From NCBI GenBank assembly GCA_963785725.1, contig CAWAWS010000006.1, forward strand, positions 224,001 to 288,000: a DNA stretch of 64,000 nt. Reading direction: 5' to 3'. The translations under genes were made by a program, and so were the position numbers. Source of the stretch: an uncultured delta proteobacterium (GTDB lineage Bacteria > Myxococcota_A > Polyangia > Palsa-1104). Below are positions 2,167-22,049 of the stretch, one piece after another (the stretch's first letter is position 1; every line of letters begins with the position of its first letter). The notes under the pieces were generated by a model. That model searched no databases. It worked only from the letters and a program-made list of their open reading frames with translations, and was not told the origin of the DNA.

Positions 2167-3653
2167 CAATGCCGTTCGGATAAGGTGGAGCGTCGGCGAG
2201 GTCATGGTGCCGGTTTGGGGCGCTTGCGGTTGTAGCTGGACATCTTGATCTTCACTTCCCGAGGCAGAACGCGGCCTGTGCGACGCTCGGGGAGCACCAA
2301 AAGCCTGAGCCGACGGGCCAACTCGTCGAGCTGTTTGGGGATGGCGCCCGGCGGCGAGTTCGAGCACCAGATCCACTCATCTCGAATGAGATCGAGCGCG
2401 TTGATGAAGCTGATGCGCGTGGGCGCCACTCCAACCTCGTCGGCCACGCGCTCGATCTCCAAGCGGATCAGGTTGTACGCCAGCGCGATCCCCCAGAGCT
2501 CTTGTCTGATTCCCGCTGGCGTTCGACTCCGAATGCACTCTTCTCGCGCCAGCAAGTGCGTCTTGACCTCGTCGTAGGCGAGCTCGATTTCCCAGCGCTC
2601 ATGGTAGAGCTCGATGACCTCGTCCGCTGGATATTGCTCGGCGTCTACCAGCGACGTCAGCAGCGTCGATGGACGGAAGCCGCGGCGTTGATAGCGGACC
2701 GCACGCAGGCTGACTGTCGCGGGCAGCTCGGGCGTCTCCTTTCGCGCTTCTCGCGATAGTGGGATTTCGACTAGATGATCGCCTTTGCCGAGCATCTTTA
2801 CGATCTTCACCGGAGTCCGCGACTTGAGGCGCGTCAGGAAGTGCTTCTCTTTGCCGCTAGCGCGAAGTTGAACCAGCGACGGCAACGGTGCACCTCGGTC
2901 GACCAGCGTCAACGAATGTTCGGGCACTTCGCGCCACAGCTCATTGGCGAGCGTCACTTCGCCGGTCGCGTAGCTCGCGAAACGAAAGGCCGAGAGGATA
3001 TGCGAACGCGCGGCCATCAGCCCGACGATACGAACCATCGGATAACCGCTCATCCCGTGTTGAGCACCCGCGGATTGTCCGCCGAATTCTGCGCGGTTAT
3101 CGACGGAGTCAGGCACACGTAAAGTCGTGCCGTCGTATACGTAAACGCTCAGCTCGCGCCATCGATGGCGCTCGGCGCTGCGCGCCGACCATTCGGCAGC
3201 GGTGGAATGGAACAAATAGGCGAGAGGCTCCTCACCGAGTCGCTGGCGAGCCTCGGCGATCGCGCTCTTAGCCACCAGCCTTCCCGTCGCGCTGGGCAGA
3301 CACAGGTCCAGGCTCGCGACGACGCGTTCGATGGCGCGATTGCGAAACAGCGCCATGCCCAGGACAATCCACAGCACCTGCACGGCCGGCAGCCGTCGCT
3401 TGCGCAGCGTTGCGACGCCGGTTGCGGCCAGTGCCTCTTCAAGCTGCACCGGGTTGAGGTGGCGGGTGAAATTCTCGAACGAATCCGGCGTCGCTCGGAC
3501 TGCCGTGTACTGTAGGGCGCCTTCGAGTAGCATGCGATTGCACCAGGGATGATCGCTGAATCCTGATCTCCTCAGCGCCGCGCGCTACTTTCTGCGGAGC
3601 GCTATTCAAAAACCCCGCAGCGACGATCACTTGCAGCTATCCGATCGGCATTG
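2167..3653 (-). mobile_element. IS4-family insertion sequence, 1487 bp
   Basis: Terminal IRs CAATGCCGTTCGGATA (2167-2182) and TATCCGATCGGCATTG (3638-3653) match at 15/16; 10-bp direct repeat CCGCTAAGCC at 2157-2166 and 3654-3663; encodes a single transposase. Confidence 0.95.
2202..3533 (-). CDS. IS4-family DDE transposase
   Basis: DGTT, DRG and YHERWEIELAYDEVK (YREK) motifs; N-terminal RKRRLP segment typical of IS4. Confidence 0.95.
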   Translation of the reverse strand: MLLEGALQYTAVRATPDSFENFTRHLNPVQLEEALAATGVATLRKRRLPAVQVLWIVLGMALFRNRAIERVVASLDLCLPSATGRLVAKSAIAEARQRLGEEPLAYLFHSTAAEWSARSAERHRWRELSVYVYDGTTLRVPDSVDNRAEFGGQSAGAQHGMSGYPMVRIVGLMAARSHILSAFRFASYATGEVTLANELWREVPEHSLTLVDRGAPLPSLVQLRASGKEKHFLTRLKSRTPVKIVKMLGKGDHLVEIPLSREARKETPELPATVSLRAVRYQRRGFRPSTLLTSLVDAEQYPADEVIELYHERWEIELAYDEVKTHLLAREECIRSRTPAGIRQELWGIALAYNLIRLEIERVADEVGVAPTRISFINALDLIRDEWIWCSNSPPGAIPKQLDELARRLRLLVLPERRTGRVLPREVKIKMSSYNRKRPKPAP

Positions 3654-4739: not shown

Positions 4740-5378
4740 CTAGAAGTCGCCGAACAGCTGCGTAATACGGACGTCGAGCGCGCTCGCCACCTTGAACAGC
4801 GACGACACCGACGCCGACGATTCGGCGCGTTCGATCTGCGACAGCAACGAGACCGACAGCTTGGTCCGCCGCGACATCTGCTTCAGCGTCAACCCGCGCG
4901 TCTTGCGCAGCTCGCGAATATTGCGCCCGATGGTCTGGTGCAGCTCGTCCTCCTTGCGGAGAACGAGGCCCTTCTTCTTCGCGATGCGCTCGATGACCGC
5001 GCGGAACTCGTCGACGGAGAACGGCTTCTTGATGTACGCCGAGACGTCATGCTCGATCGACGCCGTCGCCGTCTCCAGCGACGGGTACCCGGTCAGGATG
5101 ATGACGGCGACGTCGTCATCCTGCTTACGGATCATCCCGAGCAAATCAATCCCCGACAGCTTCGGCATCATCAGGTCGACGATGCAGACGTGGTAGTCGC
5201 CGCCCTTGAGCGTCTCGACTACCTGCGTCGGGTCATTGATTGTCGTGACGTTGTACCCGTCGTGGGTGAGGAAATCCTCGAGGTACTCGCAGACATCTTT
5301 GTCGTCATCGACGACGAGGAGATTCAATTGCGAAGACAACGGCCCCCCGGCCACGCCGCCAGGCGCTGGTTGTTCCAA
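4740..5378 (-). CDS. Response regulator: receiver domain plus C-terminal XRE helix-turn-helix (start uncertain)
   Basis: LLVVDDD, DLMMP, TG and KP receiver motifs, then IRELRKTRGLTLKQMS...LSQIER XRE HTH. Confidence 0.9.
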   Translation of the reverse strand: MEQPAPGGVAGGPLSSQLNLLVVDDDKDVCEYLEDFLTHDGYNVTTINDPTQVVETLKGGDYHVCIVDLMMPKLSGIDLLGMIRKQDDDVAVIILTGYPSLETATASIEHDVSAYIKKPFSVDEFRAVIERIAKKKGLVLRKEDELHQTIGRNIRELRKTRGLTLKQMSRRTKLSVSLLSQIERAESSASVSSLFKVASALDVRITQLFGDF

Positions 5379-5386
5379 TGCAAGTA

Positions 5387-5461
<75 letters not shown>

Positions 5462-5504: not shown

Positions 5505-5854
5505 CGGGATTAGAGATTTTTCCGCAACTAGCAGCGCTGCGTTCGACCTCGATTCGGATATTCGCACATTTACGCGAGCGCGTCACACTCCGTCGCCGCG
5601 ACCAGGTTGCACACAAACACGCCGACATGCGTCAAAGACCGACGTCAGCGACGGGAAGCATAGCCATGCGCATCGCGAAACGAAGGGGAATCATCTATGT
5701 GGTCCCGGCTCCCGATCTGGGGGGCTAGGCCCCAGTCGTCTCTTTAATTTGTCAATGATTCCGATAGCTGAGACGGGCGCGTCCATTGCAGAGCTGGTCC
5801 GGCACCATGGTCCCCAACCGTCGACTCCGCGAGAACCTCGCCAATGCCGAACGA

Positions 5855-8641
5855 ATGGCAAAGCGGCGCAGTTCATTTGAGGATCAAGCAACCGTCGTAC
5901 CTATGGAAGATGTAGTGCCCGAGGAGACGCGGCCAGGCCGGCTGCGCGACTTTGCGGCCGATCTAGATGTATCCGAATCCGGCATCGAGCTGGGAACGGC
6001 CGATATCGACATCAGCGATCTGACCGGTCAGGCGGATCTGTTGAAGACCACGGCGCATCGGACGCAAAAGCGGCCGCAGCCGAAGAAGCGGTCCAAGGCG
6101 CTGTTCGACTTCGGCGATGACGACCAGACGCGCATCGACCCGTCGCAGGATCCCGATGTCGAAGTCTTGGCCGTCGAAGAGCGCCGCGAGCCGGCCCCGC
6201 GCGTCGTCCAGGCGCGCAAGCTGCCGCTCGAAGAGCTCGCGCCGCCGCGCAAGCCGCCGCTGCCGCACTTCGCGGCGCCGACGCCGGCGCGCAAGCCGCC
6301 GCAGCGCGAGGTCGAGGAAGTCGAAGAGTTCCGCTCCGAGAAGTCGGTCGTGTCGCGCATCGTCATGTCGGTGGTGGCGGCGCTGCCGTCGGCCATTCGC
6401 AAGGCGGTCGACAAGACGGGCGCGCATCAGCTGCCGAAGAAGCAGGCGCCGGCGGCGGACGACGGCCACGCGGAAGACAAGCGCGCGACGCAGACCAGCC
6501 CCGACGCCAGCGCCTGGCGCGAGATGCGCACGTCGCCGATCTTCGACGGTTTGCCCAACGAGGCGCTGCGTGACGCGCTGATGTCCAATGACGCCCAGGT
6601 GTTGCGCGTGGTGCGTGACTCGCTGGTGTCGATCGACGGCGCCGTCGGTTTGGTGCGCTCGGGCCAGGTGGCGCTCGGTCGCTTCACCGAGGAGTCGCTC
6701 GCCGACGAGCGCAAGGCGGCGGCGGTGTTCGCGGCGGCGGCGGCCAAGAAATACGGCAACAGCCACGAGAAGAAGGAGCGCAAGCGGCGCAACGAGGTCG
6801 GTCCGCTCATTCGCTTGGCCGAGCAGAACCTGGCCACGTTCGAAGAGGGCGACATCGTCGAGACCGCGGTCGGCTCGGCCAACCACTCGACGCTCGCCGT
6901 CTACAGCGTCACGCCGGCGGTCGTCATCGTCATCGCCCGCGCGCGCGTCGACTTGTGGCGGCGCATCTATCCGTTCATGGCCGACCGCTTCCGGCGTGCC
7001 GGCGCGGCTGCGCGCGCGAAAGTGGAGGCCACCGACGGCGCGAAGTCGGCCGTGGCCGACTTCTTCATCCGCCATGGCCTGTCGGTGTCGCTGACGTTGC
7101 GCGTGCGCAAGCTCGACGCCTGCATCGAGTGCAAGGCCTGCGAGATCGCCTGCGAAGATCGCTACGGCGTCAAGCGTCTATCGATCAATGGACGCATCCT
7201 CGGCAACCTCGACTTCGTCGACGCCTGCCACACCTGCACCGACGCGCGCTGCATCGATCCCTGCAACTTCGACGCGATCTCGTTCGACGTGCAGCGCAAA
7301 GAGATCCTCATCAAGGAAGACGCGTGCACCGGCTGCACGTTGTGCGCGACGGCGTGCCCTTACAACGCCATCGAGATGCACGAGATGGACGAAGCGCCGC
7401 TCTTGAAGCTGCGCCTGACGAAAGAGAAGAAGCTCGACTTCGGCGAGGGCACGGCGCGCAAAGCCAAGCTGCGTCGTATCGCGTCGAAGTGCGATCACTG
7501 CGCGTTCTACGAGGATCAGGCGTGCGTGACGGCCTGCCCGACCGGCGCGCTGCTCGAGATCATGCCGTCGGACGCGGTGACGCAGCTGCCGGAGCAGGCG
7601 CGCGCGTCGGCCAAGGCCGGCTTCGATCGCACCGTCGCCATCGACGTCAACTCGGTCAACCAGTCGCAGGCGTTCCACAAGGGCGGCATGCGCGATCTGC
7701 CCGACCTCGGGCGCGCGCGGGCCAAGCGCGGCAAGCTGTCGCTGCCGGTGTGGTGGACGCTGGGCGTGGGCGCGTTCCTGCTGTCGTGCGTCGAGATCGC
7801 GCTGCGCCTCTGGCTACCGCGGTACTCGATGGCGTATCTGATGAACACGCTGGTCGAAGGCATCGAGCCCGATCTGGCGCTGGCGCGCGTCAACTACGCG
7901 CCGGGCTGCGAGCTCGCCGTCGACTTCGGCTACGCGGGCACGGCCATGATGATGAGCGGCCTCGCCTACGTCTGGCGCCGGCGCTTCAGCTTCATGCGCA
8001 ACGTCGGCTCCTTGCGCAGCTGGTTCGAGTGGCACGTCTTGACCGGCGTCATCGGACCGGCGTTCATCCTCTTGCACTCGGTGGCCAAGCTCGACAACTG
8101 GGTCTCGCTCGGCTTCTGGAGCATGATCATCACGGTCGCCTCGGGCTTGCTCGGCCGCTACTTCATGACGCAGCTGGAAGAGCGCGCGTCGACGGCAGGC
8201 GTGGAGACGCTCGACATCGATCGCAAGCTGGCCGTGCTGCGTGGCGCGCATCCGGGCGTGCGCGCGGCCGACGTCTGGTACGAAGCCTATCAGCGACGGC
8301 TCGCGAACTTCGAGAAGCGGCTCGGCGGCACGGCGCAAGCGCCGACGTTCTTGGGCTCGCTGGCGACGCTTTGGTACGTCATCAAAGACGACGCCATGCG
8401 CGGACGGCGGCTGCGTCAGCTCAAGAGCCAGCTGCGCAAGACCGTGCACGGCCGCAACACCCGTAGCGTTCGCAAGCAAGCGGCAGTGCTGGCGCACCGG
8501 CTGGCGCTGATGGAGCGGAGGCGCGTCGTGTTGCCGCGTCTCGAGCCGCTGTTCAATCAATGGAAGGCGGTGCACATCCCGATGTCGGTCGTGATGACGG
8601 TGATTACTACCATCCACGTCGTCATCGAATTGCGCCGCTGA
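5855..8641 (+). CDS. Fusion protein: low-complexity N-terminus, degenerate cNMP-binding-like region, 4x[4Fe-4S] ferredoxin domain, and multi-pass membrane domain with four His
   Basis: CIECKACEIAC, CHTCTDARCIDPC, CTGCTLCATACP, CDHC..CVTACP (DmsB/NrfC-type pattern); hydrophobic helices with H-x13-H pairs (HVLTGVIGPAFILLH, HIPMSVVMTVITTIH); ATG 5855 chosen as start; the cNMP-like call is weak. Confidence 0.8.
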   Translation: MAKRRSSFEDQATVVPMEDVVPEETRPGRLRDFAADLDVSESGIELGTADIDISDLTGQADLLKTTAHRTQKRPQPKKRSKALFDFGDDDQTRIDPSQDPDVEVLAVEERREPAPRVVQARKLPLEELAPPRKPPLPHFAAPTPARKPPQREVEEVEEFRSEKSVVSRIVMSVVAALPSAIRKAVDKTGAHQLPKKQAPAADDGHAEDKRATQTSPDASAWREMRTSPIFDGLPNEALRDALMSNDAQVLRVVRDSLVSIDGAVGLVRSGQVALGRFTEESLADERKAAAVFAAAAAKKYGNSHEKKERKRRNEVGPLIRLAEQNLATFEEGDIVETAVGSANHSTLAVYSVTPAVVIVIARARVDLWRRIYPFMADRFRRAGAAARAKVEATDGAKSAVADFFIRHGLSVSLTLRVRKLDACIECKACEIACEDRYGVKRLSINGRILGNLDFVDACHTCTDARCIDPCNFDAISFDVQRKEILIKEDACTGCTLCATACPYNAIEMHEMDEAPLLKLRLTKEKKLDFGEGTARKAKLRRIASKCDHCAFYEDQACVTACPTGALLEIMPSDAVTQLPEQARASAKAGFDRTVAIDVNSVNQSQAFHKGGMRDLPDLGRARAKRGKLSLPVWWTLGVGAFLLSCVEIALRLWLPRYSMAYLMNTLVEGIEPDLALARVNYAPGCELAVDFGYAGTAMMMSGLAYVWRRRFSFMRNVGSLRSWFEWHVLTGVIGPAFILLHSVAKLDNWVSLGFWSMIITVASGLLGRYFMTQLEERASTAGVETLDIDRKLAVLRGAHPGVRAADVWYEAYQRRLANFEKRLGGTAQAPTFLGSLATLWYVIKDDAMRGRRLRQLKSQLRKTVHGRNTRSVRKQAAVLAHRLALMERRRVVLPRLEPLFNQWKAVHIPMSVVMTVITTIHVVIELRR

Positions 8642-8681
8642 CGCTCTTGTCTCGGTCCGCTTTCTAAGCGACGATACGGCC

Positions 8682-11117
8682 GTGCCTCGCCTTCGGCTGG
8701 TAGTCGTGACTGCGCTCTTGCTGGTCCCGGCGCTCGCCAGGGCCGATTTCTTCTCCACCTCGCCCGGGCCGCTGGCTCAGGTCCACGCCAACATCGACAG
8801 CAAGGACCACTGCACCGACTGCCACACGAGCGGACGCGAGCTCGCCGCCGAGAAGTGCATCAAGTGCCACGAGCCGATCGGCGAGCGGCAGCGCGAGCGC
8901 AAAGGCGTGCACGCGTCGCCCAAAGCGCTCGGCAAGCCGTGCGAGCTGTGCCACACCGACCACAAAGGGCGGAACAAGAACATCCTCGGCTTCGAGTTCT
9001 TCGGCGGGCGCGAGAAGTTCGATCACAACCTGCTGACGCCGTTCCAGCTCGAAGGCAAGCATCAGACGACCAAGTGCAACGACTGCCATAAAGACAAGAC
9101 GGCGTCGGGGACGTTCACGTATCTGAAGGCGCCGACGGCGTGCGCCAGCTGCCACAACAATCCGCACGGCGACTTGCACGAGAAGCTGCGCAACTGCGAG
9201 CGCTGCCACGATGCGCGCTCGTGGAAGATGAAGGACGACGCGCAGTTCGATCACGACCGCGACACGCGCTATCCGCTCGAGAAGAAGCACGAGCCGGTCA
9301 AGTGCGCGGCCTGCCACGCGACGACGAAGTCGGGGCAGCCGCCGAATGCGAAAGCGCCGATTCCGGCGCTGACTCCGGCCGGCTATCAGAAGATGACGTT
9401 CCGCTGGCCGACGTGGGGCTTCGATTGCCAGCCGTGCCACGACAACGTGCACGGGACGTCGCTGTTCGGGACGAAGTCGTGCAAGAGCTGCCACTCGGCC
9501 AAGGTCGAGTTCACCAAGATCTTCTTCGACCACAACAAGCGCACGCGCTTCCCGCTCGACGGTGAGCACGCCGATACCAAGAAGGCGACGTGCTACTCCT
9601 GCCATCCGAAAGAGCTCAAGGGCAAGCCGTCGATGCGCTGCGACGGCTGCCATCAGGACGTGCACAAAGGGCGGTTCGCGAAGGCGTCCAACGGCAACGA
9701 CTGCGGCAGCTGCCACACGGCGGTCAATTGGCCGACGGATTTGAAGTTCGATCACAACACGCGCACCAAGTTCCCGCTCACGGGCGCGCACGCCAACGCC
9801 GATTGCCGCGCCTGCCATCGCGGCAAAGGGCCGGCCGAGTGGGAGAACGTCTCGTCGCTGGTGACGCGCTCGGGGCGCGAGCAAAAGGTCGCCTGCATGG
9901 GCTGCCACCAGCACGAGAACGTGCACAAGAAGCAGTATCCGAACGAGCGCTGCCTCGAGTGCCACAAGATGGCCGGCATCGTCGACACCAAGCCGCGCGC
10001 CATCAACGAGTTCCACGGGCCCAACTCGCGCTTCCCGCTGACCGAAGGGCACAAAGGCGTCGCCTGCGAGAAGTGCCATCCCGGCAACGTCTTCAAGAAG
10101 GACATGACGCTGCAGTGCGGTCCGACGTGCCATCCCGACGAGCTGCACAAAGGGACGCTCGGCAAAGACTGCTTGAGCTGCCACTCGGGCGGCCGGTGGG
10201 AAGCGCGCCTCTTCGATCACGACACGAAGACGAAGTGGCCGCTCGTCGGCAACCACAAGGACGTCACCTGCGAGGCCTGCCATCCGCGGCGCGACTTCGC
10301 CAACAACCGCGGCAAGAGCACCACTTGCTACAACTGCCACTCCAAGGACGACGCGCACAACGGGCAGCTCGGCCATCGCTGCGAGACATGCCATTCGCCC
10401 GACGGCAAAGTGGCGTTCGACCACAACGATCCCGAGTTCAGCGACTGGCCGCTCCTCGGCAAGCACAAGAAGGTCAAGTGCAACGAGTGCCATAAGTCGA
10501 TCGAGTTCAAGCCGACGCCGCGCGAGTGCGGCGGCTGCCACGGCGAGCCCGCCGTGCATCGCGGCCAGCTCGGCACGTTGTGCGCGTCCTGCCACGTCAA
10601 CGACGACTGGAAGATCATCCACACCGGCCACGACGTGCCGACGCCGCGCTTCGGCGGCGCGCACGACCGCGTGCCGTGTGTGTCGTGCCATCCGGGCGGC
10701 CGCTTGCTCGGCGGCACGGGGCAGCTGTGCATCACCTGCCATCGCAACGACGACATCCACCACAACGGGCTCGGGCCGCGCTGCGGCGAGTGCCACACGC
10801 AGCAGTCGTGGGCGGCGGCGCACTTCGAGCACACGCGCGTCGGCTGCGAGCTGACCGGCAGCCATCGCCTGTTGCCGTGCGTGGGCTGCCACATCGGCGG
10901 CAACTTCGTCGCGCTGGCGACGGACTGCGTCGCCTGCCACCGTAAAGACGCCGTGCGCGGCGGTGCCGCATACGCCGCGTCTCTCAAACAGGCCGGCAAT
11001 GCGGCCATCATCGCGACTCACGCCATGTTCCCTCAGTGCGGCAGCTGCCACAACACGATCTTCTGGGGAACGACGTCTTCGCGTCTCGCCGGCGGTCGCG
11101 AGTCGGTGTGCCGATGA
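8682..11117 (+). CDS. Secreted multiheme cytochrome c, about 30 hemes
   Basis: Sec signal ending ALARA; 29 CxxCH plus one CGPTCH counted by eye; recurring FDH..FPLxGxH modules. Confidence 0.95.
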   Translation: MPRLRLVVVTALLLVPALARADFFSTSPGPLAQVHANIDSKDHCTDCHTSGRELAAEKCIKCHEPIGERQRERKGVHASPKALGKPCELCHTDHKGRNKNILGFEFFGGREKFDHNLLTPFQLEGKHQTTKCNDCHKDKTASGTFTYLKAPTACASCHNNPHGDLHEKLRNCERCHDARSWKMKDDAQFDHDRDTRYPLEKKHEPVKCAACHATTKSGQPPNAKAPIPALTPAGYQKMTFRWPTWGFDCQPCHDNVHGTSLFGTKSCKSCHSAKVEFTKIFFDHNKRTRFPLDGEHADTKKATCYSCHPKELKGKPSMRCDGCHQDVHKGRFAKASNGNDCGSCHTAVNWPTDLKFDHNTRTKFPLTGAHANADCRACHRGKGPAEWENVSSLVTRSGREQKVACMGCHQHENVHKKQYPNERCLECHKMAGIVDTKPRAINEFHGPNSRFPLTEGHKGVACEKCHPGNVFKKDMTLQCGPTCHPDELHKGTLGKDCLSCHSGGRWEARLFDHDTKTKWPLVGNHKDVTCEACHPRRDFANNRGKSTTCYNCHSKDDAHNGQLGHRCETCHSPDGKVAFDHNDPEFSDWPLLGKHKKVKCNECHKSIEFKPTPRECGGCHGEPAVHRGQLGTLCASCHVNDDWKIIHTGHDVPTPRFGGAHDRVPCVSCHPGGRLLGGTGQLCITCHRNDDIHHNGLGPRCGECHTQQSWAAAHFEHTRVGCELTGSHRLLPCVGCHIGGNFVALATDCVACHRKDAVRGGAAYAASLKQAGNAAIIATHAMFPQCGSCHNTIFWGTTSSRLAGGRESVCR

Positions 11118-12770
11118 TCCGTCGGCTCCTGCGCTTCGTGCCGCTGCTGTTGGTCTTGTTGCCGACGGCGGCGCGCGCGCAGGATCTGAAAGATCGCTTC
11201 AACATCAAGCTGTCGTTGACCGGCATGTACGAGACGGAGCAAGAGGGCGAGCTGCCGGCGGCCTATGCGCGCACGCAGCCGACGACCGGCGGCAACGGCG
11301 TGGGCCAGGTGTCGTCGCCGTTCCAGCTCGGCTACGGCGAGCTGCGCGCGGTCATCGACGGGCGGCGGCTGCCCGGCAACTTCGATCTGCACATCGACGC
11401 GCGCGTACGGCTGACCGGCCCCTACTCGATCGACGACGCCACCGTCGGCAATCAGCCCATCACCGCCCGCGGCTACTTGGGCGGCAGCGAATACGACCTG
11501 CGTTCGGCCTGGGTGCGACGACGCGGCGAGAGCTGGGACTTCGGCCTCGGCCGCATGATCGTGTCCGAGGCCGACGCCCTGCGCATCGACGGCGCGCGAT
11601 TATGGTGGCGCATGGCGAAACACTGGGACGCCAGCTTGTACGCCGGCGGCTACGGCGATCCCTATTCGCGCTCGCTCAACGACGACTATTCGGGCGGCTT
11701 CGCCGCGGCCGGCGGCGGCGACGCGACGTACACGTACGATAAGATCTGGGGCTCGTTCAGCGTCAACGGCGCCTACTTCAGCGGCAACGACGACGGCGGC
11801 CCGATCGTCATCAACGCCGACGGCTCCATCGCCCCCGGCAAGCCGACGCGCGAGAAGCCGCGCACCTGGCTCACGTGGACCGACTTCATCCGCATCGCGT
11901 CGTGGCTCGACCTGTTCACTGATGTCGTCGTCGACGCGTCGGGCGAGGCGGGCGCGCAGCTCACGCGGCTCGACGCGCTGGCCACGATTCGCGCCGGCTC
12001 GCACCTGACGTTCCGCCTCGGCTACGATCACCTGTCGGCGTTCGCGATCGAAATGTGGCTGACCAAGCTGCTCACCGATCGCTCGCAGGTCGTCGCCAAC
12101 ACCATCGAGAACAACTTGACGGTCGAGCGCACCTCGCGCGACGAAGGCCGCGGCCAGGTCGATTCTCGCGTTCGGCAAATTCTCGGTCAACGGCGAAGGC
12201 CGCGTGCGCAAACGCGCGCTCGTCTCGCTCACCGACGACACGCAGTTCACCAACCAGGGCAAACAGGTCGCGCCCGGCTTCGCCTGGGACGCGACGCTCG
12301 GCGTGCACGATCGCGGCTCGCTCGCCGGCTTTCGCGAGGGCTTGTGGGCGATGTACTTGAGCGACTATCGCGCCAACAGCTTCCTCGTCGGCTTCGACCT
12401 CGGCCGCAGCTTCTGGGACGAGAAGCTCACCATCGACTTCGCGTTCTTGTACGCCAAGACCAAAGACGACGACTCGGGCAAAGGCACGCCCGTCGCCAAC
12501 ATGCCGACCTTGCCCATCGCCTGCAACACGGCGACGTATCTGACGATCAACTCGACCTGCTACGGCACGCGCAACGGCGCCGAGTACGAGACCGGCATCA
12601 CCATCGGCGGCTCGCCGTTCAACCACTGGTATGCGTTCGTCGACTATCGGCTCGTCGTCGACAAGACCGACGGCAACATCGCCAACGCCGCGGGCACGAC
12701 GACGCCGGCGCTGCCCGAGCCGACGATCCTGACGCACGTGCTGCTCCTGCGGCTCGAAGCGCGTTACTGA
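11114..12770 (+). CDS. Putative outer-membrane beta-barrel/porin, ~551 aa once a +1 frameshift at ~12163 is removed
   Basis: Signal peptide ending AARA; alternating amphipathic strands; C-terminal LLLRLEARY; ATGA overlap with the cytochrome; deleting one T in GATTCTC joins the two ORFs (QVDLAFGKFSVNGEGRVRKR). Confidence 0.8.
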
Positions 12771-15094
12771 AGCGGGAGCTCGACGATGAAGGAGGCGCCT
12801 TCGCCTTCGACGTCGCAGGCGCTGACGGTGCCGCCGTGCGCTTCGACGATGCGGCGCACGATGTAGAGGCCGAGCCCGAGCCCGCCGTAGTGGCGCGCGG
12901 AGACGGCGCGCTCGAAGCGTTCGAAGATGCGCCCGCGCTCGGCCGGCTCGACGCCGATGCCGTGGTCGCGCACTTGTAATTGCGCGCGCTGCCCGTCGGA
13001 GTCGACGCGCACGACGACCGGCTTGCCGGCGCCGTATTTGAGCGCGTTCGACAACAGGTTGGTCGCCACTTGCTCGAGCCGCGCGCGATCCCAGTGGCCG
13101 CCCAAGGCCGGCGCCGGCGCTTCGACGGCGATGGTGCAGCCGGCGCGGCGGGCGTCGTCGCCGAGCGCGCGCACGGCGTCCTGCGCGACGGCCACGAGGT
13201 CGGTCGGCTCGCGCTGCAGCTCGAGCCGACCGGAGTGCACGCGCGAGACGTCGAGCAGCGAGTCGACGAGCCGGCTCAGCCGCCGCGTCTGCCGCTCGGC
13301 CGTCTCCAGCGCCTGCCGCAAGAACGCCGTCGGCGCCTCCTCGCCGATCGCCAGCACGCTCTGCACCGCCAGCTGCAGCGACGTCACCGGCGTGCGCAGC
13401 TCGTGCGACGCCACCGACAGGAACTCGTCGCGCGAGGCCACCGCCGCCACCGACTGCTGATAGAGCCGCTGGTTGTCGATGGCCAACGCCGCGCGCTGCG
13501 CCAGATCGATCGCAATCGCCAAGTCCTCGTCGTCGTAGTGGCGGCGGTGATCTTGCGCGGCGAAGCACATCGCGCCCAGCGTCTGGCCGCGCACGCGCAA
13601 CGGCGCCAGCATGTAGGCGCCGCAGCCGATCTCGCGCAGCGTCGTGCCGTTGGACGGGAAGCTGATGGCGAGCACCGGCCGGCCGCCGCGCCCGGTCAAT
13701 TCGTCGTCGGTGATCTCGTTGTAGATGAGCGGCTCGCCGCGGGCGATGACGCGCGCGACGCCGCGGTCGCTGCCGGGCGCGACCTGCAAGCGGCGCATCT
13801 TGGCGACGTGCGTCGGATCGCGATGGTGGGCGGCGGCGCTGACAATGGTGCCGTTGTCGTCGACGAGGAAGATGATGCACCAGTCGCCCAAGAACGGCAC
13901 CGACAGGCGCGCCAAGCCGTCGAGAGGCGTGTCGTCTTCGACGGGACCGCCGAGCAGCTTGGACGCGGCCGCCAAGAAGCCGGCGCGGCGGCTCGAGCGG
14001 CGCTCGGCGGTGACGTCGCGAAAGCTCCACACGCGACCGACGGCGCGCCCGTCGACGCGCTGCGGCCGCGAGTCGCGCTCGAGGATGCGGCCGTCGCGCA
14101 GCTCGAGCACGTCGTGGCTCGAGGCTTCCGGCTCGGCGTAGAGCGCGTGCACCTTCTCGACGAACTTCGCCGGATCGCGGAGCTGCTGCGCGGCATGGAC
14201 GAGCGCGCGCGAGTCGTCGATGTCGGCGATGAGCTCCTGCGGGATGTTCCACAGCTGCAAGAAGCGCTGGTTGTAGCCGACGATGTGCGCCTCGGAGTCG
14301 ACCACCAACACGGCGTCGTTGATCGACTCCAGCGTCGCCCGCAACAGCGAGACCGACGTGGTGACTTCGTCTTCGGCGCGCACGCTGTCGGTGATGTCGA
14401 GCGCGACGCCGGTGGCGCCGATGGGCCGGCCGCCGTCGTCGAGAATCGGCGACCAGCTCGTCTGCCACGAGGAGCCGAAGCGGCGCGTGTGGTCGACCAT
14501 CGAGAAGCGCTCGCCCGCGAGCGCGCGGCGGACGTGCGACAAAAGCTCGGGCTCGTCGCGCCAGAGCGAGAACACGCTGTGGCCGACGGCGTCGCCGGGC
14601 GCCTGCCCGATCGCTTGCAAGCCGCGGCCTTGCGACAGCGTGAAGCGGCCGGTCGCGTCGACCGCGAACAGGATGATCGGCGCATGATCGATCACTTGCA
14701 GGAGGCGCGACTCGGCGGCGCGCAAGGCTTCGGTGGTGACCTGGGCGTCGGTGACGTCGATCATGAAGCCGCCGACGCGCGGCTCGCCTTCGCGCTCGAG
14801 CGCGTGCAGCTCGGTGCGAAACCAGCGCACGCCGTCATCGGCGCCGACCAGGCGATGCTCGATGCGGCGCGGCTCGTGGTCGCGGCCGACGGCGAGGAGC
14901 GCGCTGATGAAGCGGTCGCTGTCCTCGGCGTGCAGCGCGGTCGACAACAGCTCGCGCCCGGTCGTGACGAGACCGAGGCCGAGCCGCGCCACCGCGCCGC
15001 CCGACAGCGCCGTGACCCGCAGCGGCGCCAGCGCCGCCTCGAAGACGACGGCGTCGGCGAGCGCCAGGATCTGCAGCGCCGGATCCGAGTTCAC
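12764..15094 (-). CDS. Cytoplasmic PAS-PAS-PAS-GAF sensor histidine kinase
   Basis: SHELRTP H-box, NLLSNALKY N-box, DHGIG and GLGLGL G-boxes; PAS/GAF-like segments; GTG start overlaps upstream stop (GTGA). Confidence 0.92.
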   Translation of the reverse strand: MNSDPALQILALADAVVFEAALAPLRVTALSGGAVARLGLGLVTTGRELLSTALHAEDSDRFISALLAVGRDHEPRRIEHRLVGADDGVRWFRTELHALEREGEPRVGGFMIDVTDAQVTTEALRAAESRLLQVIDHAPIILFAVDATGRFTLSQGRGLQAIGQAPGDAVGHSVFSLWRDEPELLSHVRRALAGERFSMVDHTRRFGSSWQTSWSPILDDGGRPIGATGVALDITDSVRAEDEVTTSVSLLRATLESINDAVLVVDSEAHIVGYNQRFLQLWNIPQELIADIDDSRALVHAAQQLRDPAKFVEKVHALYAEPEASSHDVLELRDGRILERDSRPQRVDGRAVGRVWSFRDVTAERRSSRRAGFLAAASKLLGGPVEDDTPLDGLARLSVPFLGDWCIIFLVDDNGTIVSAAAHHRDPTHVAKMRRLQVAPGSDRGVARVIARGEPLIYNEITDDELTGRGGRPVLAISFPSNGTTLREIGCGAYMLAPLRVRGQTLGAMCFAAQDHRRHYDDEDLAIAIDLAQRAALAIDNQRLYQQSVAAVASRDEFLSVASHELRTPVTSLQLAVQSVLAIGEEAPTAFLRQALETAERQTRRLSRLVDSLLDVSRVHSGRLELQREPTDLVAVAQDAVRALGDDARRAGCTIAVEAPAPALGGHWDRARLEQVATNLLSNALKYGAGKPVVVRVDSDGQRAQLQVRDHGIGVEPAERGRIFERFERAVSARHYGGLGLGLYIVRRIVEAHGGTVSACDVEGEGASFIVELPLQ

Positions 15095-15474
15095 CGTGGC
15101 GCCGAAGCGAGCCCGGAGCGGCAGAAGCGGGCCACGACGTCGATGAGGTGATTGAGCTCGAAGGGCTTGGCCAGGATGGCGGCCGGTGACAGCGCCTTGG
15201 TCGACTGCTCGAGCCGGCCCGCGCCCGACACGACGACGATGGGCACTTTTTGCAGCCGCGCTTCCGCGGCCATGATCGCGCCCAATTCCCAGCCGTTCAT
15301 TTCCGGCATCATGAGGTCGAGCAGGAGCACGCACGGCAGGGTGTCACGCATGTGCGCCAGCGCTTCCATGCCGTTGGCCGCTTCGACGACCGCGAACCCT
15401 TTGATGCGCAAGATGGCCGCCAGGTCGGCACGAATGTCCTCGTCATCTTCTGCGATCAAGACGCCACCCGCCAT
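15091..15474 (-). CDS. Single-domain response regulator
   Basis: IAEDD, LDLMMP, SG and AKPF motifs. Confidence 0.92.
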   Translation of the reverse strand: MAGGVLIAEDDEDIRADLAAILRIKGFAVVEAANGMEALAHMRDTLPCVLLLDLMMPEMNGWELGAIMAAEARLQKVPIVVVSGAGRLEQSTKALSPAAILAKPFELNHLIDVVARFCRSGLASAPR

Positions 15475-15550: not shown

Positions 15551-18232
15551 TCAGACGAAGCGGATGCGTCGCGCGGCCACGTCGAGCAGCAAAAAGAGCA
15601 GCGCCGCCCACAGCGCCCACGGCCACAGCTCGCGATGGTAGATGACGCGCTGGCGTCCTGGGTCGAAGCGCTGCGCCGGCGTCGGCGCCGTGCGTCCGCC
15701 GGTGACTTGTGCCACTCGCTCGAGCAGCGCCGTGTCGGGCGGCAGGGCCGCGAATTCGCGCGGATAGGGCAGCGACAGCGCGCCCGCCGACTCGGCGACG
15801 ACGGCGCCGTTCTGCTTGTGCAGCGCGCGTAGCCAGAAGGCGCCGTAGCGATCGGGCGCGAACGTGGCCTCGTAGTGGCCGGGCGCGGTCTCGGCCATCG
15901 TCAGCTCGCGCTTGTCCGCCGGCCGCGCCGGGTCGATGACTTGCAGCGTCGTGTCCAGACCCGAGACGAACTTGTCGTCGGCGCCGATGGCGTCGACGGC
16001 GACGTGGGCGAGCGGCGGATCGACCTCGCTCGACAATTCGAAGCTGCGGCCGCTCGTCGAGGAAGTGGCCGAGTGGCGCATCGTCGAGCGCACCAAGTGC
16101 GCCCAGAATTTGCCGTAGCCGGGCCACTTCAGCCAATTGACGGCCCAGCGGTTCTTGACGTCGCTCGTGAACGCCGCCGCCTGGCCGAGCCCGACGCGCC
16201 AGCGCGCCAAGATAGGCTCGCCCAAGTCGCTGACGAGGATGACGTCGCTGAGCGGCTTCGGCTTCGTCGACACGTAGCCGCGCAAGGGCGGCGCCTCGCC
16301 GATGTCGACGCCTTCGAGCAGCTCGGCGCGCTTCTGCACGTGCACGCCGACCTGCTCCTCGACGAGCGCGTTGCGCGCGACCTCGGTCGTCTCCTTCGTG
16401 AAGATGCGCGGGATGCTCTCGGCCGACTGCGTGAAGTAAAAGCGCCCGCCGCCGCGCTCGGCGATCATCGTGAGCAGCGTCTTGTCGGCCTCGGCGCCGA
16501 CGCCGACGGCGCTGATCGTGATCTTGTGCTCGGCCATCTCGTCGACCAGCTCGCGGATGCCTTCGTAACTCGCCTGCCCGTCGGTCAAGAGAATGACGTG
16601 CTTGAGCTTGGCGTGCGCCGGATCGAGCTCGTCGTAGGCCTCTTTCAGCGCCGGCAAGATGTTGGTGCCGCCGCCCGCTTGCAGCCGCGCGATGTCGCCG
16701 GCGATGCGCACGCGATTGGCCGCGCGCTGCAGCCTGACGATCGCCGTCGGCTGCGAGTCGAAGGCGATGACGCCGATGAGATCGTCGGCGCCGAGCAGCT
16801 CCGCCGTCGCCTTCGAGGCGTCCTTGGCCAGCTCCAGCTTCTCGCCCGTCATCGAGCCCGAGCGATCGATCACCAACGCCAGCGCCAGACCCGGCTGATC
16901 GCGCTTCTTCTCGGTCTCGAAGCGCACCGGCAAGATCTTCTCCAGCTTCGAGCCGGTGTAGCCGCCGGCGCCGAAGCTGTTCTCGCCGCCGGCCATGATG
17001 AACCCACCGCCGAGGTCGCGCACGTAGCTCTCGATCGCCGTCATCTGGGCCGGTCCGACGAACGTCTGCGCCACGTCCGACAAGATCACGAGATCGTAGG
17101 CCGCCAAGTCGCGCGGCGACGTCGGCAAGCCGTAGCTCGAGCGCACGTCGACGTCGATGTTCTCGCGCTTCAACGCGTTGGCCAGATACGACGCCGCCTG
17201 CGGCTCGCCTTCGACGTAGAGCACGCGCGGCTTGCCTTGCACCGCCAGCGACGCCACCGCCGCGTTGTTGCCCGCGAAGTGATCGGCGAGCGGCTTGCCC
17301 GGCGCCGCCGCCAGCTGCACCTTGAACGTCGTGAAGCCCGCCTGCGCGACCTCCGCCTTCCACTTCACGACATTCGGTCCCGCTTGCAGTTGGACGACCT
17401 TGCGGCCTTCGAGCGGGTTGACGTATTCGTCGCGATAGAGCGTCAGCGCCACGGTTTGCGGCGTCGTCGAGTCGATCTCGGCCGCGACCTCGAAGGGCGC
17501 GCCCATCTTCACGTCGTTCGGCAGCGTCAACGCGCGCACGAGCACTTCGGGCTCGCTGTCGGCGCGCGCGGCGATGACGTCGACGCGCACGCCGCGCTTG
17601 GCCGCCTCCGCTGCCTCGGCCGCGAGGTCACCCTCGGTCTCGTTGCCGTCGGAGACGATGAGCGCGCGCTTGATCGTGCCCGGCGGAAAGAGGCCGTAGG
17701 CCAGCGACAGCGCCGACGCGAGGTCACTGCCGTCGCCGTCATGGCGCGCGAGCGCGTCGGCCGGCAGCGGCACGCCGTCGGGCGGCAGCGGAATCAGCCG
17801 TGGATGCAGGCCGAAGGTCACCAGCATCAGCCGATCGTCGCCGTGGCGAGCGGCGCGCGTCTCCTCGATCGCGGCGCGCGCCGAGGCCAGCTGGGCGTCG
17901 CGAATGGAGGCCGAGACGTCGACGAGCAGCACCGTCGCCACCGTGCGCCGCTCGCCGACCGTCGACGGCCGCGCCAGCGCCAGCGCCAGGCAGGACACGA
18001 GCAGCATGCGCAAGACCGCCGACAGCCGCTGCTGCGCCGCCCGCAAGTCGACGAGCGACAGCCACAGCGTCGCGCCGACGAGCGGCAGGAGCGCGAGGAT
18101 GAAGAGCGCGCGCGGCCGCAAGAGCTCGACCGGCCCGATGCTGACGAGCTCGCGCCCACGCGTCGACCAGGCGATCGCCACCGCGATCGCGCCCATCAGC
18201 GCCAGCGTGATCGTCGCCCGCAGCCACTTCAT
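15551..18232 (-). CDS. Membrane-anchored protein with two VWA domains and a glutamine-amidotransferase-like middle domain
   Basis: MIDAS motifs DVSAS and DRSGS; LTDG; GGGFIMAGGENSFGAGGY; N- and C-terminal TM helices; ATGA overlap with upstream gene. Confidence 0.85.
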   Translation of the reverse strand: MKWLRATITLALMGAIAVAIAWSTRGRELVSIGPVELLRPRALFILALLPLVGATLWLSLVDLRAAQQRLSAVLRMLLVSCLALALARPSTVGERRTVATVLLVDVSASIRDAQLASARAAIEETRAARHGDDRLMLVTFGLHPRLIPLPPDGVPLPADALARHDGDGSDLASALSLAYGLFPPGTIKRALIVSDGNETEGDLAAEAAEAAKRGVRVDVIAARADSEPEVLVRALTLPNDVKMGAPFEVAAEIDSTTPQTVALTLYRDEYVNPLEGRKVVQLQAGPNVVKWKAEVAQAGFTTFKVQLAAAPGKPLADHFAGNNAAVASLAVQGKPRVLYVEGEPQAASYLANALKRENIDVDVRSSYGLPTSPRDLAAYDLVILSDVAQTFVGPAQMTAIESYVRDLGGGFIMAGGENSFGAGGYTGSKLEKILPVRFETEKKRDQPGLALALVIDRSGSMTGEKLELAKDASKATAELLGADDLIGVIAFDSQPTAIVRLQRAANRVRIAGDIARLQAGGGTNILPALKEAYDELDPAHAKLKHVILLTDGQASYEGIRELVDEMAEHKITISAVGVGAEADKTLLTMIAERGGGRFYFTQSAESIPRIFTKETTEVARNALVEEQVGVHVQKRAELLEGVDIGEAPPLRGYVSTKPKPLSDVILVSDLGEPILARWRVGLGQAAAFTSDVKNRWAVNWLKWPGYGKFWAHLVRSTMRHSATSSTSGRSFELSSEVDPPLAHVAVDAIGADDKFVSGLDTTLQVIDPARPADKRELTMAETAPGHYEATFAPDRYGAFWLRALHKQNGAVVAESAGALSLPYPREFAALPPDTALLERVAQVTGGRTAPTPAQRFDPGRQRVIYHRELWPWALWAALLFLLLDVAARRIRFV

Positions 18233-20109
18233 ACGGTCACGCGCCGGTTGTAGGTCCACCACTCGATGAGCGCGAGCAACAGCGCCGCCAGCACGAGGTA
18301 GCCCCAGATTTCGCGGCGCACGCCGAGGCGGCCGGGCTCGGGCGCGGCCAGCGCTTTGCCGTCGACGCTGAGCGTGTGATTGGGCGCGATGGCCGATTCG
18401 TGCGCGTCGGCCAAGTTCGCCGCCAGCTGGCGCGGCGTCTGGCCGGGCGCGCCGACGCTGTAAAAGCCGACGTGGCGGCCGAGGTAGCTGGCGCGCCCGT
18501 CGTGCACCGGCGCCTCCGCGTGCTCGCCGTCGGGCGCTTGCACGGCCAGTGACGTCGCGCCCGGCGGCGCCGGCAGTCGCCACGTGTGCCCGGTCGCGTA
18601 CGACGCCAAGAGGCCGCCTTCGCTGCCCGCGAACCAGTCGAGCGCGTTGATGAGCAAGATGGGAAAGGCCACGCGCAACGGCAAGTCCGAACGCTGCAGC
18701 TCGAAGCCGAACGCCACCGTCTTGCGCCCGTCTTTCTCTCGCGCGATGATAATTGGCTGCTTGAAGCTCGACGCCACCGCCACATCGCCCGGCGACAGCG
18801 CGAAGGTCGAGGCCTTGGCGATATTCAGATCCTTGAGCGCCACCCAGCGCATGAGCGGATGGCTCGCGGTCGTCTCGGTCACGACCGGCCCGTCGACGCT
18901 GCCGCGCACGGTGAACGGCGCGCCTTCGCCGTGCGGATCGAGCCACAGCGCGTGCGTGCGCGGCTTTTGGTCGGCCGGCGGCGTGAAGCCGTCGAGGATG
19001 ACCGCGTCGTATTTCGCCGTCGCTGCCGCATCCCACGCGGCGGGCGCGATCTTGTCGACGTCGAGGTTCTGGTCGAGCAGGAGCGCGCCCTCCAAGAACA
19101 GATCGCCGCTCGAGACCAAGAGCACCTTCTGCTTGCGCCGCTCGGGCAAGAGCGCGTAGGCCGTGTCGTCGAGCGGCAAGGCGTCGTGCGCGTCGGTCAG
19201 CGTCGCCACCAGCCGCGCGCCATCGCCGGCCAGGTCGGGATAGATGCGCTGCACGCGCGCGCCCGCCGCCAACGTCAGCTTCTGCGACTCGACGACCTCG
19301 CCATCCTCTTGCAGCTGTAAGGTTACCGTCGACGGCTGCGCGCGGAAGCTCTGCACCTCGATCAAGACTTCGTAGGCCGTCTGGTTCGCCTGATAGCGCC
19401 GCACGGCGAAGGCGGTGATGCCGACGTTGTCGCCGCTCGTGCCGACGGGGACGTAGCGCAAGTCGACGCCGGCGAGCGCGCGCACGCCGCGGGCGAGCTC
19501 GGTCGCGTCCCAGGCGCCGTCGCCGAGGAGGACCAGCGTCGGTCGCGCGCGGCCGCGCAAGGCGTCGCCGGCGAGCTCGAGCGCGCGCGCGACGTCGGCC
19601 GCGGTGTCGTCGGCGCGCAAGCTGTCGATGGCGTGGCCGAGCTCGCGGTCGTCGCGCGTCATGCCGCCGACCGGCGCCGGCCGCGCGTCCATGGCCACGA
19701 CCATCGCTTCGTCGTCGCCGGCGAGCGCGCGCACCAGCTGCTGCGCTTGTTTTTGCGCGGCTTGCAGGCGGGTCAGACCGCCGCCGCCGTCGGTCGCCTG
19801 CATCGACGCCGAGGTGTCGACGACGAACACGATCGATCGGCCGTGCTGCGACGCCGCCAGCCGCGGATCGGCCAGCGCCGACAGCAAGAGCAGCAGCAAG
19901 ATCAGCTGAATCGCCAGCGAGATGAGGCGACGCAGCTTCTTCCACAGCGCCGTCGACTGCGACTCCGACAGGACGCGGCGCCACAAGTCGGCGAACGGCA
20001 CCTCGAGCCGCCGCCGGCGCAGCTTGAGCAGATAGAGCGCGACCAGCGCGCTGGCGCCCGCGGCCAGCGCCGGCCCGAGCACCGACAGCGGTGCGCCGCC
20101 GATGATCAC
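18229..20109 (-). CDS. BatA-like N-terminal domain plus VWA membrane protein (start approximate)
   Basis: LYLLKLRRR...ALADP BatA-like segment, DTSASM MIDAS, C-terminal TM ending IEWW. Confidence 0.82.
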   Translation of the reverse strand: MIIGGAPLSVLGPALAAGASALVALYLLKLRRRRLEVPFADLWRRVLSESQSTALWKKLRRLISLAIQLILLLLLLSALADPRLAASQHGRSIVFVVDTSASMQATDGGGGLTRLQAAQKQAQQLVRALAGDDEAMVVAMDARPAPVGGMTRDDRELGHAIDSLRADDTAADVARALELAGDALRGRARPTLVLLGDGAWDATELARGVRALAGVDLRYVPVGTSGDNVGITAFAVRRYQANQTAYEVLIEVQSFRAQPSTVTLQLQEDGEVVESQKLTLAAGARVQRIYPDLAGDGARLVATLTDAHDALPLDDTAYALLPERRKQKVLLVSSGDLFLEGALLLDQNLDVDKIAPAAWDAAATAKYDAVILDGFTPPADQKPRTHALWLDPHGEGAPFTVRGSVDGPVVTETTASHPLMRWVALKDLNIAKASTFALSPGDVAVASSFKQPIIIAREKDGRKTVAFGFELQRSDLPLRVAFPILLINALDWFAGSEGGLLASYATGHTWRLPAPPGATSLAVQAPDGEHAEAPVHDGRASYLGRHVGFYSVGAPGQTPRQLAANLADAHESAIAPNHTLSVDGKALAAPEPGRLGVRREIWGYLVLAALLLALIEWWTYNRRVTV

Positions 20110-20140
20110 GACGCGCTCACGCCCGACATCAGGCCGGGAA

Positions 20141-21010
20141 TCACGAGAGGAATCCGCCTTCGCGAAACATCCGCAGGACCAGGTCTTCGAACGGAATGGC
20201 GACGTCGGCGCGGTAATACGGAATCGCGCGCGCGCCGCAAAAGGCCTCCAGCTGCGCGCAATATTCGGCGTGCGCGCGGGCAAACGCCGCCAATTGCCGC
20301 TCGGACACCGTCACCTCCCGCGACTCGCCCGACTCGACGTCGACGAGCTCGAGGTCGCCGCGCAAGGTCGGCTTGGCCTCGGCCTCCGACCACACCTGCA
20401 GCACGGTCGGCTCGAAGCGGTGATAGCGCAGGAGATTGAGCCCCTCTTCGTAGCCGGCCGGATCGTAAAAATCGCTGATGACGATGGCCAGGCCGCGCCG
20501 CTTCGTCTGGTGCACGAACGACTCGAGCGCGCGCGACAGCTCGGTTTTGCCTCGCGGCTCGAGCGCCGTCAGAAATTGGAAGACCTTGAAGATCTGCGCC
20601 TTGCCGCGCGTCGCCGGCAGCCGCTCATTCTCGGCGCCGCCGCCGAACGGCACGATGCTGACGCGATCGAGCTTGGCCAGGCCGATATACGCTAATGCCG
20701 CGCAAAGCCGTTCGGCATAATCGAGTTTTCCATTGCTGCGCATCGACGCCGAGGCATCGAGGAGAATATAGATATGCAGATCTTCTTCTTCCTCGAACAA
20801 GCGCAGCAAGAGCTTGTCGAGGCGACCGTAGACCGACCAGTCGAGATAGCGTAGATCGTCGCCGGCGGCGTAGTTGCGATGGTCGGCGAACTCCACGCCC
20901 GAGCCGGTCTTGCGCGAGCGGCGCTCGGCGCGAATACGGCCTACGAATACCTTTTTTGCGACGACATAAAGGTATTCCAGTTTCTTCAGAAACGATTCGT
21001 CGAATTCCAT
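20141..21010 (-). CDS. DUF58 family protein
   Basis: GSGVEFADHRNYAAGDDLRYLDW, DASASM and ISDF motifs; adjacent to MoxR. Confidence 0.92.
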   Translation of the reverse strand: MEFDESFLKKLEYLYVVAKKVFVGRIRAERRSRKTGSGVEFADHRNYAAGDDLRYLDWSVYGRLDKLLLRLFEEEEDLHIYILLDASASMRSNGKLDYAERLCAALAYIGLAKLDRVSIVPFGGGAENERLPATRGKAQIFKVFQFLTALEPRGKTELSRALESFVHQTKRRGLAIVISDFYDPAGYEEGLNLLRYHRFEPTVLQVWSEAEAKPTLRGDLELVDVESGESREVTVSERQLAAFARAHAEYCAQLEAFCGARAIPYYRADVAIPFEDLVLRMFREGGFLS

Positions 21011-22006
<996 letters not shown>

Positions 22007-22049
22007 GGGTGGATACTTTAGCAAGAAGCTGGGGATGGGCACGTCGATA

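Follow-up and report, generated by a model that had tools for sequence, protein, structure and literature searches.

The closest described relatives of the locus considered here are predicted electron conduits named PCC3 and PCC4. Their inner-membrane protein (IMP) is defined by five helices, two WX3HX13H motifs and an SGXXG motif. It has been likened to ferric reductase and NADPH oxidase, with two b hemes and quinone activity proposed, and in PCC4 a PF13247 Fe-S gene lies upstream of the IMP gene; the annotation of Oceanospirillum beijerinckii merges the two into a single gene (He, Barco, Emerson, Roden 2017, PMC5566968). PCC3 combines a periplasmic cytochrome of 21–27 hemes with an extracellular one of 10–35 (Hoover et al. 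2023, PMC9900912), and its function was still without experimental test in 2025 (10.1101/2025.02.27.639646). For the PCC3 barrel of Leptothrix cholodnii, 22 strands are predicted; no support for the strand number was found in the available part of PMC12545173. The present locus (positions 5855–12770) belongs to a window of 64,000 nucleotides, the whole stretch of DNA analysed, from an uncultured delta proteobacterium (GCA_963785725.1, contig CAWAWS010000006.1, positions 224,001–288,000). Its three genes, here called A, B and C, encode an Fe-S/membrane fusion, a 30-heme cytochrome and a predicted outer-membrane barrel. Sequence comparison makes it likely that A-B-C is a compact variant of the predicted PCC3/PCC4 conduits. 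With moderate confidence, we propose from sequences and models that the three proteins would form a quinone-independent wire leading from cytoplasmic Fe-S carriers to the cell surface.

All three genes lie on the plus strand. A 40-bp gap separates the end of A (8641) from the start of B (8682), and the stop of B overlaps the start of C as ATGA (11114–11117), which agrees with a preliminary description of the window made from its letters alone. Two other elements of that description hold as well: the 4x[4Fe-4S] protein fused to a membrane domain, now supported by 16 cysteines, Fer4 matches and five helices, and the secreted cytochrome of about 30 hemes, which has a signal peptide and exactly 30 motifs.

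The start codon of gene A is not fixed (an alternative TTG lies upstream at 5786). Fifteen of the Fe-S cysteine positions are invariant in 103/103 aligned homologs and the remaining one is kept in 101/103; Fer4_11 (PF13247) scores 28.6 bits (cut-off 26.2). In the membrane domain, the four histidines and the SG..G motif are invariant in 103/103 homologs, and the full motif set is present in 100/103. In the AlphaFold2 model of residues 206–928 (pLDDT 89.5, pTM 0.82), a beta-roll domain and a ferredoxin domain accompany five membrane helices, of which two reach far into the cytoplasm. The charge distribution places the N-terminus, the Fe-S domain and a long loop on the cytoplasmic side, while the histidine pairs of the third and fifth helices (TM3 and TM5) stand at opposite sides of the membrane. 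Two b hemes stacked across the inner membrane are predicted from these motifs. In its histidine pattern, A resembles the transmembrane domain of ferric reductase and NADPH oxidase (PF01794), with two histidine pairs on the third and fifth helices and two transmembrane hemes. It differs in the absence of the FAD/NADPH dehydrogenase domain found there (no Pfam match in A; the tested FAD motif occurs in 0/103 homologs) and in its pairing with a cytochrome wire. By profile comparison, the N-terminal domain of A is weakly similar to distant homologs (E 4e-4, probability 35%); among four of these that were scanned, one exceeds the Pfam cNMP_binding cut-off and one more remains below it. Because no conserved arginine stands at the place of the phosphate-binding cassette, this cyclic nucleotide monophosphate (cNMP)-binding-like domain appears degenerate and probably does not bind cNMP.

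The motif number of B (29 CxxCH and one CxxxCH) is far beyond chance, because only 11 of the 57,090 six-frame open reading frames (ORFs) of the genome contain at least three CxxCH; the highest number after B is 13. In 22 aligned copies, 30 motifs occur in 19, 29 in two and 31 in one, the aligned set being trimmed to the last 30 motifs (untrimmed ORFs count 29–32). Thirty motifs are also present in three more genome copies and in 7/7 complete metagenome copies. The heme number is thus nearly fixed at 30, even at an identity of ∼33% between the two subgroups of carriers. The aligned copies share 29 conserved histidines outside the motifs, which is consistent with bis-His ligation, and two extra cysteines near the C-terminus possibly form a disulfide. 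Conservation peaks at residues 621–740; this is compatible with contact to the barrel, without being proof of it. At its other end, the N-terminus of B matches 23-heme periplasmic cytochromes and also small cytochromes (E 6e-8) whose genes adjoin stand-alone IMPs at loci lacking a barrel. When B is scored by segments as a possible fusion of the 23-heme type with a second cytochrome, hemes 1–6 clearly match the 23-heme N-terminus, and in the C-terminal segments the second type scores only slightly higher (e.g. 58 versus 47 bits).

Gene C was previously read as one signal-peptide protein ending in LLLRLEARY. This reading has to be corrected: the signal-peptide part lies in one frame and the part ending in LLLRLEARY in the next, a shift that had gone unmentioned. 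A contig of run X1 (183 bases, one other letter and one gap) and a contig of run X3 (1.5 kb, ∼90% alike) both lack one base at 12163, gene C is intact in close relatives, and the reading minus the extra base agrees with the columns of the homolog alignment. Since the relatives and both overlapping contigs are without the extra base, the shift most probably reflects an assembly error and less probably a mutation at strain level. A generally frameshift-rich assembly was considered and rejected: of the genes nearby that were compared with three related loci, C alone changes frame. The model of the intact homolog P0121 (∼60% identical; pLDDT 84) has 22 strands by our count and no plug, so that something else must fill the lumen. 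Fold comparison ranks first the barrel parts of 22-strand TonB-dependent transporters (tied at Z 17–18, root-mean-square deviation (rmsd) 5–6 Å, 355–390 residues aligned). MtrB (6r2q_B) comes 32nd (Z 13.6, rmsd 6.7, 358 aligned), a generic barrel likeness, and Foldseek returned generic barrels only. By a geometry formula with assumed shear numbers, the backbone diameter is ∼40 Å, against 48 Å for 26 strands. By this estimate, the barrel of C is narrower than the 26-strand MtrB and has the same strand number as the predicted PCC3 porin. Its family is broad: clustering at 50% identity gives 657 clusters when E values up to 0.001 are admitted and 143 up to 1e-30. Protein-cluster look-up gave unnamed clusters only; ten distant barrel proteins had no informative names.

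Conservation was surveyed in 301 genomes of the phylum with profiles of A and of the barrel. Matches to A occur in 25/301 genomes and comprise 23 full Fe-S/IMP fusions, one Fe-S part alone and one IMP alone. The barrel profile matches 46/301 genomes, 23 at full length (E at most 4e-94) and 23 partially (E at least 2e-12). Full-length C and fused A occur in the same 23 genomes. B lies directly upstream of C in all 23, and A-B-C are contiguous in 17 and split at contig ends in one. Among 16 metagenomic loci, B precedes C in 14/14 that extend upstream of C, and in 5/5 with enough room A in turn precedes B. The window cluster and 22 other genome loci inspected contain one multiheme gene only. A tree of 50 IMP sequences (those under 180 residues left out) gives no clear grouping of the two A subgroups into one clade. 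A two-heme lipoprotein (CxxCH and CxxxxCH, with a flexible linker) is encoded directly upstream of A at four loci of close relatives (L002:7846-8541, L004:7862-8605, L115:492-1226 and L118:1043-1720; locus numbers are ours). The window, L001 and L003 lack it, and tblastn gave no match in the host genome; the lipoprotein is a candidate for an optional surface cap.

How the locus relates to the described classes can be stated trait by trait, B and C being set against PCC3 by published description rather than by reference sequences of Sideroxydans or Leptothrix. Common to PCC3 and the present cluster are the IMP motifs, here in a fused domain, a large repeat-rich periplasmic cytochrome with >20 hemes, and a large outer-membrane barrel in the cluster, predicted with 22 strands from the intact homolog and frameshifted here; both are proposed to span the whole envelope. 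The differences are a separate extracellular multiheme cytochrome, absent here, where a single cytochrome has a nearly fixed number of hemes; the fusion of the IMP to a four-cluster ferredoxin and a cNMP-like domain; and taxonomy, with Proteobacteria for PCC3 and relatives labelled Polyangia or Myxococcales here. PCC4 subgroup II shares the PF13247-type Fe-S protein upstream of, or fused to, the IMP and the lack of a separate extracellular cytochrome, but its set of 4-, 5- and 10-heme cytochromes is missing and the operon has no further redox genes. Strict membership of either class fails, because PCC3 has the separate extracellular cytochrome and PCC4 the 4/5/10-heme set.

MtrAB, PioAB and MtoAB share with the locus the order of a cytochrome gene followed by a barrel gene. 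In these systems, the cytochrome is thought to fill the barrel. It has 10 hemes there and 30 here, and the present cluster brings its own inner-membrane module. The decaheme model TIGR03508 (DmsE/MtrA type) gives 27.5 bits on B, below its cut-off of 192.2. The preliminary description took MtrAB/PioAB as the nearest reference; the predicted PCC3/PCC4 clusters are the closer kind, and the locus is for this reason less unprecedented than was held. The statement that it is not a characterised system stands in the experimental sense, and no match to a characterised enzyme complex was found, whereas the membrane-domain family and the kind of cluster had been described from genomes in 2017 (PMC5566968), the only one among the papers listed for the HX13H motif that contains it. 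The three-gene form was not found in literature searches on Polyangia/Myxococcota, multiheme cytochromes, porins and extracellular electron transfer. Many unclassified multiheme clusters in Myxococcota are reported in a lake survey (10.1101/2022.03.26.485925), and these may include the A-B-C form.

A wider family surrounds this cluster. The IMP profile matches 93/301 genomes, and a word-index search for stand-alone IMPs gave almost only A fragments. Where clusters of a type other than A-B-C were inspected, the IMP is usually accompanied by a ferredoxin/TrxR-like flavoprotein that adjoins the membrane protein or is fused to it, by a 21–36-heme and a 9–14-heme cytochrome, and by a distantly related barrel; the cytochromes of such clusters vary from 9 to 40 hemes. 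Their IMPs form a clade separate from the two A subgroups (support 0.94). A flavoprotein-linked, PCC3-like example is the Emticicia oligotrophica plasmid NC_018749.1, with a homologous IMP (E 3e-15), a homologous 23-heme cytochrome (30% identity over ∼620 residues) and a distantly related barrel (profile E 4e-14). Flavoprotein-linked clusters differ from A-B-C by the two-cluster ferredoxin/TrxR-like flavoprotein, by two or more cytochromes and by variable heme numbers. In the host genome, a stand-alone, membrane-anchored flavoprotein of this two-cluster type is encoded apart from the locus (C4:16089-17567, L094). Among the 301 genomes, its close orthologs occur in exactly the 8 A-B-C carriers of the same class; from sequence, it is a candidate electron donor to A.

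Several side observations were made. Similar acidic Thr motifs are seen in the N-terminal tail of A (window 5855–6300) and in the C-terminal tails of the flavoprotein orthologs (L098–L103, L106). In L105, the flavoprotein is fused to what we take to be FHA-like repeats. Judged from these motifs, phospho-threonine control is possible. L105 (6273–15999) and L104 represent a second cluster type found in the same taxonomic class. Here an intact double-cNMP, four-cluster Fe-S and IMP fusion lies next to a fused FHA/7-heme/flavoprotein gene and to divergent cytochromes with 15 and 9 hemes, in a PCC4-like manner. The host has two further candidate multiheme-plus-barrel clusters, one at C5:40507-46524 (L095; 10, 10–12 and 13 hemes), whose barrel-like gene gives a weak hit with the profile of C (E 3.5e-6), and one at C16:196356-199129 (L096; 13 hemes). 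Finally, short IMP homologs on plasmids (L054, L055 and L057) follow 2Fe-2S/FNR-like proteins, and two of the three precede a 7-heme cytochrome among copper-resistance genes.

In the proposed wire, a soluble cytoplasmic carrier, either a ferredoxin or the separately encoded ferredoxin/TrxR-like flavoprotein, would exchange electrons with A in place of quinone. From the four predicted cytoplasmic [4Fe-4S] clusters of A, electrons would cross the inner membrane over the two predicted b hemes before they reach the 30 c hemes of B, a single cytochrome that would span the periplasm. B may dock on A by its N-terminus and enter C by its C-terminus, plugging the predicted 22-strand lumen. Outward flow is favoured, by analogy with the membrane domains of NADPH oxidase and ferric reductase; cytoplasmic reducing power would then be dumped on, or delivered to, an extracellular acceptor. 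Motifs, signal peptides, gene order and conservation come from sequence comparison, the folds of A and C are predicted, and cofactors, contacts and direction are inferred. The earlier claim of an envelope-spanning conduit thus survives in its architecture (a diheme-b-type domain, 30 hemes, a plug-less barrel and co-occurrence), while electron flow, its direction and the donor are deduced only. The 22-strand, plug-less fold of the intact homolog and the joint conservation of the three genes leave this claim standing.

A number of points weigh against the quinone-independent wire. Fifteen of the 23 carrier genomes had supplied rows to the barrel profile, and the co-occurrences are not independent events because the carriers fall into two related groups. 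A lies apart from B-C in 5/23 genomes. Among carriers of the distant subgroup, 11/15 lack a flavoprotein match at E 1e-40, and the orthologs in 8/8 same-class carriers may reflect kinship alone. For the membrane domain of A, Pfam Ferric_reduct (PF01794) gave no match, and PDB sequence searches with this domain and with B returned nothing significant. Gene C is broken in this assembly, and its family has no match in Pfam, NCBIfam or PDB sequences, hence no solved relative. To these is added the quinone-active cytochrome b proposed for the same motif family (He et al. 2017, PMC5566968).

This proposal speaks for the first alternative, a quinone-linked conduit as modelled for PCC3/PCC4, in which the Fe-S domain would be a side branch serving reverse electron transport or regulation, with inward flow from Fe(II) or humics, or outward flow. 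Two heme-copper oxidase subunit I matches in the genome could take inward electrons, and a donor domain with catalytic or NAD(P)H-binding function is missing from the operon. Such a linkage is unlikely in our judgement: the 16 Fe-S cysteines are fused to the membrane domain and nearly invariant, in related clusters an NAD(P)-binding flavoprotein recurs as the partner of the membrane protein, and the five-helix TM3/TM5 layout resembles that of two enzymes that do not use quinone, ferric reductase and NADPH oxidase (the likeness is drawn in PMC5566968).

Less likely again is a sensing or low-flux role outside energy metabolism, such as redox sensing of surfaces or prey, reductive uptake of iron or copper, or superoxide production, with the cNMP-like domain and the Thr-motif tail as regulatory parts. 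The retained cNMP-like domain, the oxidases of the host and the position of the locus among housekeeping genes in both subgroups (rpe/tRNA-Pro; rpsB-tsf-pyrH-frr, by translation reading) fit this role. Pfam and NCBIfam scans found no signalling output domain in any of the three proteins, no metal-uptake genes were seen beside the cluster within the window, and 30 hemes would be costly for a sensor. It is very improbable that other carriers feed B-C as a porin-cytochrome pair and that A is an independent membrane ferredoxin merely often adjacent, as the genomes with unlinked A might suggest, against contiguity across two distant subgroups, the match of the B N-terminus to cytochromes beside stand-alone IMPs, and the other 278 genomes searched, none of which has a full-length barrel match or a linked fused A of the same type.

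If the quinone-independent wire is retained, a bolder version can be formulated, which we put forward only tentatively and regard as rather doubtful. In a minimal circuit of three proteins, the single polypeptide with its length-locked 30-heme chain would act as a molecular ruler across the periplasm and the outer membrane. It would be connected directly to the cytoplasmic ferredoxin/NAD(P)H pool, with no recourse to quinones or periplasmic shuttles, and would be inherited vertically in soil myxobacteria that are not known as electroactive.

Features of the locus and of its flanks are compiled in Table 1. The flanking regulator and tRNA-Pro(CGG), both divergent from gene A, are kept at the same place in relatives, with up to 96% identity. 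A scan for promoters and terminators remained at the level of shuffled sequence (1 versus 0.7; 7 versus 5.7). A transposase-like ORF (IS4-type by translation reading) lies on the minus strand at 2202–3533, between rpe and the response regulator, and is not seen at that place in L002 and L003. MoxR-type ATPase, DUF58-like and vWA genes (by translation reading) occupy the minus strand at 15551–22042 and are found downstream in relatives too. The host genome (8.9 Mb, 88% complete) contains cytochrome c maturation genes. Its closest relatives are metagenome-assembled genomes labelled Polyangia or Myxococcales, and the overlapping public runs compared with the locus are soil metagenomes.

Table 1. 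Coordinates of the A-B-C locus and its flanking regulators, in window positions (aa, amino acids; TM, transmembrane helix)
Feature	Position	Strand	Description or basis
Gene A, 928 aa	5855..8641	+	Variable N-terminal region, degenerate cNMP-binding-like domain, four predicted [4Fe-4S], five-helix domain of PCC3/PCC4 IMP type
cNMP-binding-like domain with helical insert, ∼aa 213–391	6491..7027	+	Beta-roll plus helices in model
Ferredoxin domain, aa 423–561	7121..7537	+	16 Cys, four predicted [4Fe-4S]; Pfam Fer4_7, Fer4_11 and others above cut-off
Five-helix membrane domain	7736..8638	+	WxxxHx13H on TM3 (H727/H741) and TM5 (H907/H921), SGxxG on TM4
Gene B, 811 aa	8682..11117	+	Signal peptide; 30 c-heme motifs at 26 aa per heme, arranged in roughly three-heme repeats (∼26 aa per heme also in the large periplasmic cytochrome of PCC3)
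Gene C, outer-membrane beta-barrel, ∼550 aa	11114..12770	+	Predicted 22 strands, no plug; model of intact homolog P0121, fold searches, intact relatives
+1 frameshift site in gene C, one extra base in TT	12163..12164	+	Overlapping contigs, homolog alignment, frame change versus L001 and L002 proteins
Receiver and XRE-type helix-turn-helix regulator	4740..5461	-	Divergent from gene A
PAS/GAF-like histidine kinase	12764..15334		Converges on gene C

The characterised conduits (Mtr, Omc and Pio) draw on the quinone pool via separate inner-membrane cytochromes and shuttles. What is new at this locus, as judged from sequence comparison, is the single cytochrome fixed at 30 hemes and the strict co-occurrence of the three genes, the class itself having been predicted in 2017. 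If true, a three-gene path leading from cytoplasmic Fe-S to the surface would allow the PCC3/PCC4 class, including the quinone linkage of its IMP, to be tested in its simplest form. It would also represent a natural wire of fixed length, ∼25–30 nm when scaled from triheme-repeat structures, and a compact part for bioelectrochemistry. For uncultured soil myxobacteria themselves, it would suggest redox chemistry at the cell surface.

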